64,000 nucleotides of DNA from Eledone cirrhosa (Eukaryota): the NCBI GenBank assembly GCA_964016885.1, contig OZ024751.1, forward strand, positions 39,370,001 to 39,434,000. The letters run 5' to 3'. The notes under the pieces were generated by a model that did no database searches, was not told where the DNA came from, and worked only from the letters and a program-made list of their open reading frames with translations. Position 1 is the first letter of the stretch; each line of letters starts with the position of its first letter. This document shows positions 7,097 through 53,970 of the stretch, piece after piece. A program made the translations under genes and the position numbers.

Positions 7097-7135
7097 TTCT
7101 TAACGTTTCGGACGCTAGTCCTTCATCAGAAAAAA
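7097..7135 (-). ncRNA. Minimal type I hammerhead ribozyme-like motif (Penelope-type)
   Basis: Minus strand reads UUUU CUGAUGA A GGAC-UAGC-GUCC GAAACGUUA AGAA: intact core, 4-bp stem II, palindromic AACGUU stem III, weak stem I. Confidence 0.65.
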
Positions 7136-8399
7136 GAATACATATATATATATATACATATACATATATATCAGGGTTAAGCCAATATTAAACACTAGTA
7201 AGAACGTTATTCAACAGAGTATTCGATTTGTGTGTGTTTGTGTTTGTATGTGTGGGTATGTATATATATATATATGTGTGTGTGTGTGTGTGTGTATTTG
7301 TAAATATGTATACATATATATATATATATATATATATGTGTGTGTGTGTGTGTGTGTGTGTGTGTGTGTGTGTGTGTGTGTGTGTGTGTGTGCGTGTGTG
7401 TGTGTGTGTGAGTATGAGTGTGTTTATGTGAGTGTGTTCAAATATCAGGAGATATGGTATAACTTGGTAAATAATTCCTCACCATCCAATTATAAATGGC
7501 ACCAGTTCTTTGGAAACTTCTCTACTTGTTGGTGTCTAATTCCTTTTTGAAAATGGAATATTTGCTATTGTGTGGCCAACATAGATGAACTTGATTGAAC
7601 TTTTGATTAATAAATACTAACATCCATCGCAGTTCGTAGTAACAGAAATGAGAAAGCTTGTGTAACGATTTGATATATGTAATTAAAGATTTCTCTAAGT
7701 GAAAGCCCTCGGGTGTTATAGTTTGAAGAGATTGAAATGGAGAAAAATAAAATAAAGTATGAACAAAAACAAAAAAAAAAGAAATAAAAGTAACAAAAAA
7801 GAAAGGAAATAAGAAGACAGAAAGAAATGTTTCATTGACATGTATTAACGTTGTGGGCGTAGATAGACGAGGTTGTGAGAACGAAAGCGAAAATAAAAGT
7901 GAAAGTGAATTGAAAGTTTGTCTTTCGCTAGAACTGCGATGACTCGAAATAACTTCATAACGAATGTGACATTCCAATCAGCCATTTTAACAGTAAAAGT
8001 CAGAACGAAGAGATCATCACGTGGACAATCTCTCGAATTAACTCTAAGAAAGAAATGGTAATGGCTTTAAGCAAAACTGGAATACGGGTCGGAATTTGAC
8101 CCACTGAAAATTTATCCACTTTACATTATATGGATTGCTGCAGTTTGTTGTTGTTGCTGTTGTTATTGTTGTTGATGTTGTTGTTGTTGGTGTTGTTGTT
8201 GTTGTAAATGGTGTTCCATTAACTTCTGGGGCCGAGTTCAAGCCCTCCTACGGGAGAGGTGACGAATATAATCGTTAGAACGTCGGTAAAAATAATTTCT
8301 GGTATTTGATTCCCGCTCTTTGCAATCCGAGCTTGAATTTCTCTGATATCAGTTTAATATTTAATCGACTGGAGATCGATAAAATAAAATGACACTCCG

Positions 8400-8572
8400 C
8401 GGCAGTGAATCTGTGGTGTCTTTAGAATGCCGGCTATGATGTCTTACAGTGTCCGTTCCAAGATTAACTTTGCCTTCCATCCTTACGGGGTCGATAAAAT
8501 AAAGTACCAGTAATGCACTGGTGAATTGCTGGCCTTGTACCAAAAGTAGAAACAATTATTATTATTATTATT
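8400..8572 (+). mobile_element. SINE family A (degraded head)
   Basis: Central block TTAACTTTGCCTTCCATCCTTACGGGGTCGATAAAATAAAGTACCAG plus tail, followed by (TAG)n. Confidence 0.8.
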
Positions 8573-8775
8573 AGTAGTAGTAGTAGTAGTAGTAGTAGTA
8601 GTAGTAGTAGTAGTAGCAGTAGTAGTAGTAGTAGTTGTAGTAGTAGTAGTAGTAGTAGTAGTAGTAGTAGTAGTAGTAGTGGCGGTGGTGGTAGTCGTGG
8701 TAGTAGCAGTAGTAGTAGTAGTAGTAGTAGTAGTAGTAGTAGTAGTAGTAGTAGTAGTAGTAGTAGTAGTAGCAC
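8572..8775. repeat. (TAG)n microsatellite
   Basis: Direct reading; extends the SINE tail. Confidence 0.95.
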
Positions 8776-8789
8776 CATTATTATTACTA

Positions 8790-8972
8790 CTTGGGCAGTA
8801 TCGGCAGAACATCAGACACTATACTTTGAGTTACGGTCCTTTACGATCTGAGTTCAAATCCCGCCGAGGTTAACTTTGCCTTGCATCCTTACGGGGTCGA
8901 TAATATAAAGTACCAGTAATGTACTGGAGCAATTGCTGGCTTTGTGCCAAAAGTAAAAACAATTATTATTAC
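8790..8972 (+). mobile_element. SINE family A
   Basis: GGCAGTATCGG head, GAGTTCAAATCCCGCCGAGG, central block, tail. Confidence 0.88.
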
Positions 8973-51425: not shown

Positions 51426-51885
51426 ATTGGTGAAGATGAAGATGATGAAAATTATAATATTCATGAGAAGAATATTATTAATTTTATTTAATAATTAGTA
51501 CCTTCTAAAACTTTCTCTGGTTAATGACTCACACATACACACACTAACAGTAACACACATACACACCAATACATACACACGCTAACACCTATACACACAC
51601 AAACAGCCACACATACATATACCTTGATATATGCACACACACCTACACATATACAGACACACAGACACACATATATATGTCCGACCCTTGCAAGCAGGGA
51701 AAAGCGGACGTAAAATGATGATGACGATGATATATATTTATACATATAGACGCATATATATATACACACACACACGCAGATATATATATATATATACATA
51801 TATATATATATAATATATACACACACATATATATATATAAACAAATGTATAACAGACATGGAGGAGGAATTACGCGCATACTTAC

Positions 51886-52081
51886 TGACTTGTCTCCCTT
51901 TGGTGGGATAATTAAGGTGATGAACTTGAGGTCAAACATAAGTTGAAGGGATCTCTGTTGATTAAGAGGCAATGAGTCAGGGGTGAGAGGCAACTGTTTA
52001 GTGTGAGCATTCTTCAAGAGATGTTCGTAGCAGTCAAGGACTCCCTCAAATATTTGGCTCACTATATCCTGTAGTACTTGT
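51886..52081 (-). CDS. COG1: COG1 internal exon (QVLQDIVSQ...NQQRSLQLMFDLKFITLIIPPKGDKS)
   Basis: Resembles COG1 Q.RALQL.(Y/F)DL.(Y/F)...KGD. Acceptor polyT..CTATTTCAG (phase 2), donor TCA|GTAAGT (phase 0) matching the next exon. Confidence 0.88.
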
Positions 52082-52886
52082 CTGAAATAGAACAAAAAAA
52101 AAAAAAAATGAAAGATAAGTAAACACATGAATATGGTTGTGTGGTTAACTCTTTACTTACCAACCAACCAATCTTCCCACCTACCAACCAACTAATCGAC
52201 CAAGCAGCCAACTAAACAGTCAACCAACAAAATAATGATCACCACAACATCATATATATATATATATAAAGTGCATGGCCTCAGCCGGATGGCTGGAACA
52301 GGTAAAAGAGAATATATATGCATATATATATATATATTATATATATGTAGGAGGTGAGTTTAGCCTTCATATCATGTTCTCCTGTTTTATCTGATGAAAA
52401 CACAAATATTATTGCATGATGATGTTTGTTTTTGAAATGCGCATAATAAAATACATGGAACTCCTTTAACCATCTTTTGATCTTATATTATATATTATAT
52501 ATATATATATATATATATAATTAGAAATAGAAGCTTTTGGTGTATTTTTGACTAAAGATATTTTAGCCTGATAGTGGGGTTTAGAACTCTCAAAGAAATG
52601 GAAAAAGATGAGTATTGACATATGCATATATATATACACAACCAAACACACACACACATATATATATATATGTATATATATATATATACATATATATAAA
52701 CATTTTCTTTTCAATGGCTGACAATACCGTACCAGCGCCACTCGAATAAGGTAGTTATTTAACCCAGAAATGGGGCCCTAACAGGTACTGGGAGTTATGA
52801 TAAATAAGGGGTAACTCCACATTCCCCACAGCTCCTGAACTCTCGAACTGGACCCTTGCCACTGGATGTAGTTTAATGTCATACGA

Positions 52887-53227
52887 GAATGCTGAGGATA
52901 GCTCTGAACCTTAATCAGTATACACTGAGGATGAAGAACTCAGAACTGTATGGGAGCTTCCCAAAAGTCAGCTCAAAAGTGACACAGAGGAGACTGAGGT
53001 TAGCTGGACATGCTCACCGAAATCCAGAGTTGACACTGCACTCAGTGCTCCTGTCGGAGCCCCTGCATAGACACATTGGAAGAGGAAGACCAAGGTTAAC
53101 GTATGTTGATGCCCTAAGGACAGACACTGGTCTGTTGGAGACGCAGGACATTGCAACGAGAATGAGGCACGACAGAGACCACTGGAGAGAACTCATCCAT
53201 GGATCTCGAGAAGTTTACCTGCCCTAG
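52887..53227 (+). mobile_element. LINE C-terminal fragment, same family as 21138-21565
   Basis: MLRIALNLNQYTLRMKNSELYGS...RRLRLAGH...YVDALRTDTG; ends at TAG followed by (ATAG)n. Confidence 0.9.
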
Positions 53228-53895
53228 ATAGATAGATAGATATATACACAACTAAACATACACACACAAATACACACACACACACACACATATATACATA
53301 TATATATATATATATATATATACATATCATTATATACACACACACACACATGTATATATATGGGTGTGTTAAGTTATTATGTAGTGATGGTGCGATAAAA
53401 CATACTTGATGAGGGAAACCTATCTGAGATCCAGTTTAGATTTCCAGATGTAACACTGTTGCTACTGTTCTTAGGAACAGATCAAGACATCTGGAATATC
53501 TCCTTTCACATTCCTTGGTGAGAGCAAAATAAAATTGTATCTTTCTTTATATTTATCAACTAAAGAGTCACTGTAATCTTGAAATTGAATTTGAGATTAC
53601 AACTTTATATAAACATATTATTGTAATGTCTGTTTTGTTTTTATTTTGAGCCAAGAGAGCAATTATTGGTAAAGTAGACAGTACGCTACTGTATATGATA
53701 AAGATAAAGATGAAGATTTCTTATCTATTAATATAATGATGGCTATTTTTTATAATATTCCAAGTCACATACGCCTATATATATATATAATATATATATA
53801 TATATATATATATATATATATATACGTTATTCCGGGTTGAATCGGAGGTAACCACAGTAAGTAAGGTACTCAATACATTGCAGAGTATAAAAGTG

Positions 53896-53970
53896 TTAAT
53901 ATAGATGAGATTCTACAGGACTAGAACTGTTTCATTCTTTAGAAATCATCAGGAATCTCATCTATATTAA
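53896..53970 (-). ncRNA. Complete type I hammerhead ribozyme fold
   Basis: UUAAUAUAGAUGAGAUUC CUGAUGA U-UUC-UAAA-GAA-U GAAA CAG-UUCUAGUC-CUG UA | GAAUCUCAUCUAUAUUAA: 18-bp stem I, intact core, stem III, GUA triplet. Confidence 0.75.

Follow-up and report, generated by a model that had tools for sequence, protein, structure and literature searches.

Type I hammerhead motifs in (TA)n-bounded islands of an Eledone cirrhosa contig: probable truncated ends of Penelope-like retrotransposons

The stretch of DNA analyzed here, hereafter the window, comprises 64 kb of Eledone cirrhosa (contig OZ024751.1, positions 39,370,001 to 39,434,000 of the forward strand), of which 37% is simple repeat. It holds four coding exons of COG1 on the minus strand (52083-51874, 49195-49058, 37789-37580 and 32270-32118), recognized by their similarity to Octopus COG1 at 80-88% identity, which marks the host as an octopod, and, dispersed between (TA)n tracts, a set of short islands that carry hammerhead ribozyme motifs, which are the subject of this report and are probably the remains of Penelope-like elements (PLEs). 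Both halves of the hammerhead core, whose positions are numbered by the standard nomenclature, are present at 12 loci, or about one per 5 kb, and four half-motif or rearranged islands lie besides at 10768, 27697, 36526 and 36908. An earlier reading of the letters alone, hereafter the original prediction, had listed at least six CUGANGA motifs, most with unrelated stems, at about one per 10 kb. Six loci that it missed are added here, namely three of family G (14203+, 42442- and 52391+), two of family H (36705+ and 19882-) and a tentative member of family I (19667-). Four of the six listed sites do have a CUGANGA core; those at 29448+ and 42591+ (C3 at 42597) read CAGAAGA and form one family, so that the six sites represent five families.

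Family A (7011-7137, minus strand; C3 at 7129, H17 at 7102) is a minimal type I hammerhead with an extra base after A9, a G10.1-C11.1 pair, a 4-bp helix II, a palindromic helix III and a 5-bp helix I. Family B (14932-15108, plus strand; C3 at 14986) has the core and 4-bp helix II of the minimal PLE type, has no helix I and sits between two inverted copies of another repeat. The latter resembles a miniature inverted-repeat transposable element (MITE) and occurs at 14599-14701, 14785-14909, 15228-15352 and 52520-52622 with inverted arms of ~125 bp; the arms at 14785-14909 and 15228-15352, which are 96.8% identical, have island B and a (TA)n tract between them. Family C (21812-22039, plus strand; C3 at 21937) is decayed around an intact core, with a 26-nt helix II containing mismatches, an AT palindrome and a mismatched helix I. 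Three copies represent family G: G1 (14139-14304, plus strand; C3 at 14203, H17 at 14256), a type I hammerhead with a 35-nt helix II, an 8-nt palindromic helix III and an 8-bp helix I; G2 (52347-52483, plus strand; C3 at 52391, H17 at 52445), whose 36-nt helix II forms 15 pairs; and G3 (42350-42530, minus strand; C3 at 42442, H17 at 42388), which lies in a COG1 intron in the sense orientation. Family H is distinguished by its helix II, of 103 nt in H1 (36662-36886, plus strand; C3 at 36705, H17 at 36826) and 99 nt in H2 (19700-19886, minus strand; C3 at 19882, H17 at 19765), which in both copies forms a single long hairpin, with energies of -30.1 and -23.0 kcal/mol and z values of -6.2 and -4.1 relative to mononucleotide shuffles, the whole motif having a z of -3.3 relative to dinucleotide shuffles. 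Both copies have a palindromic helix III; H1 has C·A at 10.1-11.1 and a 9-bp helix I, H2 is 5'-truncated within helix I, and the two differ at N7 and by an A-U/G-C swap at 10.2-11.2. Family I is represented by a rearranged island, I1 (10768-10965), with inverted arms seen by eye and an inverted segment in which lie the 3' half of the core and, at 10893+, a tail hairpin, and by the tentative copy I2 (19535-19683, minus strand), in which CTGACGA at 19667 and GAAA are accompanied by a 63-nt irregular helix II, an imperfect palindrome and, by eye, a 7-bp helix I.

The remaining islands share the tail hairpin described below. Family F (53826-53974, minus strand; C3 at 53952, H17 at 53914) is a hammerhead of the type found in the Hydra clade of PLEs, lies sense to COG1 and has U·U at 10.1-11.1, a 4-bp helix III with an 8-nt loop, a GUA site, an 18-bp helix I and a tail hairpin at 53886; its hammerhead fold lies 3.5 kcal/mol above the minimum-energy fold. 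In the second copy, F2 (36526-36637), an inverted, decayed hammerhead segment on the minus strand is joined to the family tail on the plus strand. The loose ends of matching reads have the order seen in F, hammerhead first and then tail, which makes F2 the rearranged copy; the alternative, a core of F flipped between its stem arms, was rejected. These loose ends retain only ~5 bp of helix I; the 18-bp helix is thus not family-wide and is likely a snap-back extension on a natural 5-bp helix I. Family D/E comprises a fold-back, D (29376-29603, plus strand; arms matching at 70 of 74 positions), with the CAGAAGA core at 29448, U·U at 10.1-11.1, a 9-nt loop III and a one-sided tail hairpin at 29520, and a second copy, E (42576-42749, plus strand), with the same core at 42597 and a tail hairpin at 42699. 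All three arms at these two loci read CAGAAGA, with A in place of U at position 4 (U4A), which at two loci could be shared decay. The islands J (36908-37130, minus strand; arms 74/79) and K (27697-27841, plus strand; arms 39/41) are also fold-backs, J with a 3' half-core, an AT palindrome and a one-sided tail hairpin at 36977, K with a GAAA half-core and a one-sided tail hairpin at 27782.

The motifs exceed chance expectation. A plain descriptor (CTGANGA, an optional extra base, a stem of at least 3 bp, then GAAA) matches the window seven times against a mean of 0.49 in shuffled sequence, a number that none of 200 shuffles reaches, so that the motif density lies above that of shuffled sequence, as had been predicted; one of the seven matches, at 38822+, looks like chance. 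Requiring helices I and III (the full type I descriptor) leaves five matches against 0.12 (0 of 150 shuffles), and widening this descriptor post hoc for family H gives seven against 0.005 (0 of 200 shuffles), the loci being A, F, G1-3 and H1-2. A strict descriptor that allows no extra base after A9 fails to detect A and B. At its gathering thresholds Rfam reports no hammerhead in the window and only two tRNA-like matches; Hammerhead_HH9 scores 15.3 bits at F with a cut-off of 52, and the best 150 of 437 matches in a scan by E-value are only microsatellite-driven ones and two tRNA-like ones. Three uncounted CTGANGA cores, at 6683+, 22418+ and 50851+, are followed by hairpins and damaged GAAA-like motifs and are possibly older hammerhead relics. 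A tandem repeat of ~100 bp at 186-691 on the minus strand has units with CTGAGGA or CTGAAGA, after which the descriptor scans find no hairpin and GAAA.

Families F and H are high-copy. The segment 36480-36886, which spans F2 and H1, was compared with sequence sets from three organisms and finds 5973 contigs in X1 and 8938 reads in X21 (both organism A), 48 contigs in X5 (organism B) and 21 contigs in X6 (organism C). No RNA data set is listed for 52340-54000. The window copy F2 has lost two bases that family F needs for a full helix III and GUA site; these bases are carried by 4197 of 4388 and 4015 of 4386 X21 reads, and in each of the three organisms loose ends of F run on into the 5' core. 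Of the 40 differences listed for family H, none affects the 18 positions of the core and helix III, and helix II holds 13; either A or U stands at H17, and wobble pairs in helices I and II give way to Watson-Crick pairs, the one in helix I to A-U. An unconserved core, the outcome that was to speak against the original prediction, is hence not what the reads show for F and H, which keep their catalytic core. Among the joints listed, 14 of 15 change strand, and eight have both ends in helix II of F.

Islands of at most 300 nt bounded by (TA)7 hold 10 of the 11 motifs tested, compared with 14% of unmasked positions, B being the only motif outside such an island by the same measure, which bears out the placing of the motifs in short TA-bounded islands. 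The AATAAA reported near several islands occurs in the sense orientation in 8 of 12 rows, compared with 381 of 1432 background windows; in family G, however, it is part of helix I, so that its excess says little, and we do not accept it as a poly(A) signal.

Alignments of the G and H copies give common 3' ends and differing 5' ends: H2 starts inside helix I, and G3 is longer than G2. The fold-backs are centered on loop II (J), just before GAAA (K) or, in D, on a short palindrome that immediately precedes the core on its 5' side, and their diverged arms argue that D, J and K are genomic. The short arm of D, K, J and F stops 0-9 nt before a tail hairpin through which the long arm passes, and I1, judged by eye, is arranged likewise. 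This hairpin, RCTC…GAGYAC, is closed by RCTC/GAGY followed by AC and is found in the islands I1, K, D, J, E and F; as a post hoc pattern within 70 nt of (TA)n it occurs six times in the window against 0.19 in shuffles. Taken by itself, the 12-nt tail motif does not exceed chance (two matches, a number reached in 39 of 100 shuffles). The hairpin has a G-C outer pair in K and D, as in the metagenome loci L045, L013, L094 and L118, while I1, J, E and F have A-U. A hallmark of PLEs is the inverted, 5'-truncated copy with a tail of 30-40 bp on one side only. Beside these ends we note an island at 21621-21778 on the plus strand that shares an 18-nt terminus with E (two matches against 0.15 expected), contains a decayed hairpin and a palindrome and is likely another worn PLE end.

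The connection to PLE coding sequence comes from outside the window and from other organisms. A pattern built on family F has at least 123 matches in at least 120 loci of metagenomes, and in at least 24 of them helices I and II each have a minimum of 3 bp. In L045 two F-type hammerheads flank a Hydra-clade open reading frame (ORF) of 745 amino acids with the Hydra marks RWK, DKS, CxCX5C, CxxC and CxH (proteins of the clade being characterized by RWK, DKT, CxCX5C and the lack of CCHH), and only here are pseudo-LTRs (pseudo-long terminal repeats) seen as direct repeats around the ORF; in L013 one F-type hammerhead stands behind a Hydra-like endonuclease end. The tail hairpin lies downstream of the hammerhead in L045, L013, L094 and L118, that is, in 4 of the 22 structured matches listed that have enough flank, and in none of the 90 unstructured matches among those listed. 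It is also present in three of the six published Hydra consensi (PMC8557442, file S7). None of the 120 homologues listed for the L045 ORF is named octopus. Viral contigs contain no relative of the Hydra ORF, and their nine pattern matches, without stems by eye, are taken as chance. A different arrangement was observed in L036 (259-3048, minus strand; also L037), where a reverse transcriptase (RT) ORF of 929 amino acids ends 135 nt before the hammerhead; the 4-kb contig has a second hammerhead, and the RT has no Pfam match and is not Hydra-like by eye.

Taken together, these observations make it probable that the islands, which hold type I hammerhead motifs of about ten repeat families, represent the 5'-truncated 3' ends, or pseudo-LTRs, of Penelope-like retrotransposons, likely of the Hydra clade in F, D/E, I, J and K, and that target-primed reverse transcription is the likely route of their insertion into (TA)n. 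An autonomous element elsewhere in the genome, encoding an RT and a GIY-YIG endonuclease, would nick (TA)n; reverse transcription would start at one of two sites, just 5' or ~30-65 nt 3' of the RCTC…GAGYAC hairpin; and copying would run for 100-250 nt and then halt or snap back at a helix of the ribozyme, with short islands and inverted copies as the outcome. PLE enzymes are known to nick AT-rich DNA and to reverse-transcribe from internal RNA sites (PMC4209133; PMC6765202), and in an element of Anolis the tail is the stretch between two RT start sites in a stem-loop, insertion in vitro proceeding without hammerhead cleavage (PMC11167929). Because the copies retain sequence on both sides of the cleavage site, the template was likely an uncleaved RNA. 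Hammerheads with a palindromic helix III cut poorly unless dimeric (PMC4209133; PMC6765202), and most single genomic copies are likely inert relics, since cleavage by those with such a helix (A, C, G and H) would depend on a dimer or on help from a protein. Of the original attribution to "Penelope-derived or retrozyme" families, the Penelope part is thus supported indirectly, by architecture, (TA)n targets, insertion ends, fold-backs and L045. The attribute "non-autonomous" is unproven, as truncated ends of autonomous elements look like non-autonomous families.

Several results weigh against a PLE, and in particular a Hydra-clade, origin of the islands. No PLE ORF or coding remnant was found in the 64-kb window, which is why the link is indirect: a Hydra profile of 60 sequences reached a best E-value of 4.3, a tblastn search of the window for PLE coding sequence one of 1.0, and a Pfam scan of 148 window frames returned LINE (long interspersed nuclear element) endonuclease and RT domains as its only retroelement matches, the Pfam scan being a weak test for Hydra ORFs because Pfam also fails on the ORF of L045. 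A candidate endonuclease remnant at 7640-7452, upstream of A, was not accepted (weak tblastn E-value of 4.0, stops). Neither does any octopod contig connect these families to a PLE ORF; no family resembles Hydra-1_Obim or the ends of octopus Naiads by eye; four short motifs have no match in the available part of the Craig 2021 supplement (PMC8557442); and the family G pattern has none in metagenomes. The U·U closure is not specific to Hydra, since in L036 a hammerhead of this type accompanies an RT of another kind. The tail hairpin is missing in 18 of the 22 structured metagenome matches listed and absent from A, B, C, G and H, so that these are not assigned to a clade. As to the sequencing data, no listed read piece bridges both halves of the H core, although both window copies do, and library chimeras can mimic strand-switch joints.

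Among the alternatives, the one that shares most with the PLE reading holds that some families, G and H above all, are self-standing non-autonomous elements of 150-220 nt (solo retrozymes or PLE-dependent units akin to short interspersed nuclear elements, SINEs) with a fixed 5' end and their own transcription, mobilized in trans by PLE enzymes. That no ORF remnant lies near any copy, that G1 and G2 open with the same five bases after (TA)n, that the depth of H in X1 drops ~16-fold from bin 36676-36689 to 36662-36675 and that monomeric retrozyme copies derived from pseudo-LTRs have been described (10.64898/2026.07.22.740005) all speak for it; yet 5' ends vary inside families (H2 begins within helix I and G3 exceeds G2), single minimal hammerheads were earlier interpreted as truncated PLEs (PMC4209133), and enzyme and target are common to both readings, so that we consider such units unlikely. 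Tandem non-LTR retrozymes, which would self-cleave to monomers that circularize, are known in a mollusc (PMC7229834), and palindromic helix III would suit dimeric cleavage. A self-comparison of the window, however, reveals no head-to-tail unit, related copies lie 10-38 kb apart and some on opposite strands, and the fold-backs are inverted rather than tandem; the retrozyme part of the original attribution, read as tandem units, is therefore not supported, and this explanation is very improbable.

It is about equally hard to believe that the motifs are host-retained ribozymes acting on COG1 pre-mRNA, in spite of the fact that F and G3 share the orientation of COG1, G3 lying between exons that were mapped and F upstream of the first of those seen, and that the 4-bp helix III of F could let it fold as a monomer: G2, E and H1 are antisense, the copies come from high-copy families and several are decayed, and the hammerhead fold of F is not its most stable one, as stated above. 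Least credible of all is an origin of the islands as MITE-like DNA elements, or as simple hairpins whose likeness to hammerheads is a chance product of AT-rich DNA. Several islands are indeed near-perfect inverted repeats with TA flanks in a window rich in simple repeat, but three descriptors exceed shuffles, the copies vary only where hammerheads tolerate it (at N7, H17 and wobble pairs, with the A-U/G-C swap in H), and the inverted arms are asymmetric with the tail on one side; this explanation is already largely refuted.

Comparison with described systems supports the assignment to PLEs in part. Hydra-clade elements target (TA)n, carry hammerheads and include Hydra-1_Obim of O. bimaculoides (Craig 2021, PMC8557442). 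As in the window, their type I hammerhead stands near the 3' end at (TA)n targets, a preference also seen in Naiads (PMC8557442); F and D/E share the U·U closure of helix II with 14 of 26 Hydra rows (PMC8557442, file S2), unlike A, B, C, G and H, an ACAG/CTGT helix III shared with the window occurs in 4 of the 26 (PMC8557442), and U10.1·U11.1 is a known natural hammerhead variant (PMC3088659). On the other side, loop III measures 8-9 nt in F and D/E against at most 3 nt in the Hydra rows, D/E has A at position 4 unlike those rows (PMC8557442), and Hydra elements carry an ORF whereas the islands have neither an ORF nor a sequence match to Hydra-1_Obim. PLEs in general produce inverted, 5'-truncated copies with one-sided tails as seen here (PMC8557442). 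A and B share the unpaired base after A9 and the G10.1-C11.1 pair, and A the palindromic helix III, with the minimal hammerheads of PLEs, which likewise comprise many families per genome, mainly as single dispersed motifs (PMC4209133). Their helix II of at most 7-8 bp (PMC4209133) differs from the 35-36 nt of G and the 99-103 nt of H, the latter about twice the longest in Craig file S2 (53 nt, PLE-X1_sMoe; PMC8557442); G and H also lack their G10.1-C11.1 pair, the C·A of H1 having a precedent in PLE-X1_cBra (PMC8557442).

Poseidon PAc of Anolis (Frangieh 2024, PMC11167929) places its hammerhead upstream of a stem-loop as here and shares two insertion end points bounding an optional tail, AT-rich targets and, in vitro, insertion of uncleaved RNA; it belongs to another clade, its RT-start stem-loop is AC-rich and lies inside the ORF (PMC11167929), and the window tail hairpin, in contrast, is deduced from insertion ends alone. 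Non-LTR retrozymes are, as here, short and non-coding with a type I hammerhead and kinship to PLE pseudo-LTRs (PMC7229834; 10.64898/2026.07.22.740005), but are defined by at least two tandem hammerhead units and circular RNA, and the window has no tandem. Cephalopod Naiads also target (TA)n, and Naiad_Ovul and Naiad_Esco have "half-core" motifs with long spacing (PMC8557442); in the 3' ends of Naiad_Obim and Naiad_Ovul (file S5) GAAA precedes CTGATGA, unlike the window islands by eye, and these reversed halves may point to a permuted hammerhead under the "half-core" label.

A LINE remnant with APE endonuclease, RT and a PHD-like finger lies at 61199-63924 on the plus strand, with a related piece at 47985-48632 (plus strand), and a second LINE-like C-terminal piece has copies at 21141-21488 (minus strand) and 52883-53224 (plus strand). 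A tRNA-derived SINE-like family of ~300 bp occupies 27045-27375, 33044-33359, 40703-40988 and 45454-45775, and the Rfam tRNA matches, at 33296-33359 and 40713-40770, lie inside it. A very frequent dispersed repeat of ~190 bp, often partly tandem, is found at 1188-1996, 8458-8980, 15668-16445, 17842-18283, 25577-25746, 28060-28248, 34415-34821, 37262-37459 and 55911-56025, and a single C2H2 zinc finger match (E-value 6e-5, under the Pfam cut-off) at 19114-19284 on the plus strand.

To call this a poorly catalogued system, as the original prediction tentatively did, was an overstatement: hammerheads of PLEs and a Hydra clade with an Octopus member are published, octopus PLEs are abundant (PMC13282606; PMC8967140) and 31 recently active PLE families are reported for O. 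vulgaris (PMC13282606), so that the system itself is known. Possibly new are the giant helix II of family H, the U4A core and a cross-phylum tail hairpin at the point where short fold-back arms end. The literature searched, outside of which lay Lunse 2017, Repbase, the O. vulgaris Zenodo library and the bioRxiv supplements, mentions neither a helix II of ~100 nt nor a U4A family nor the tail hairpin, and those sources may already hold these families or variants; the available text of Craig 2021 (PMC8557442) does not mention the hairpin. Speculatively, and with less than even confidence in the whole, we suggest that the RCTC/GAGY hairpin, present from corals and sea cucumbers to octopods, might be an RT start signal of the Hydra clade bracketed by two insertion ends, that the hammerhead might serve mainly as a stop or snap-back structure giving rise to inverted copies, and that octopods might carry high-copy variants missed by standard descriptors, namely an active hammerhead whose helix II reaches ~100 nt and a natural U4A family.

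Since families with a ~100-nt helix II and possibly a U4A core escape Rfam and the usual descriptors, counts of hammerheads in cephalopods are probably too low, and the sense copies in COG1, F and G3, could affect its pre-mRNA if they cut. The tail hairpin bears on the choice of the RT start site in PLEs, on the origin of their one-sided tails and inverted copies and on the role of their hammerheads, and a short hairpin that coincides with insertion ends across phyla would offer a direct substrate for testing how PLE reverse transcription is initiated.

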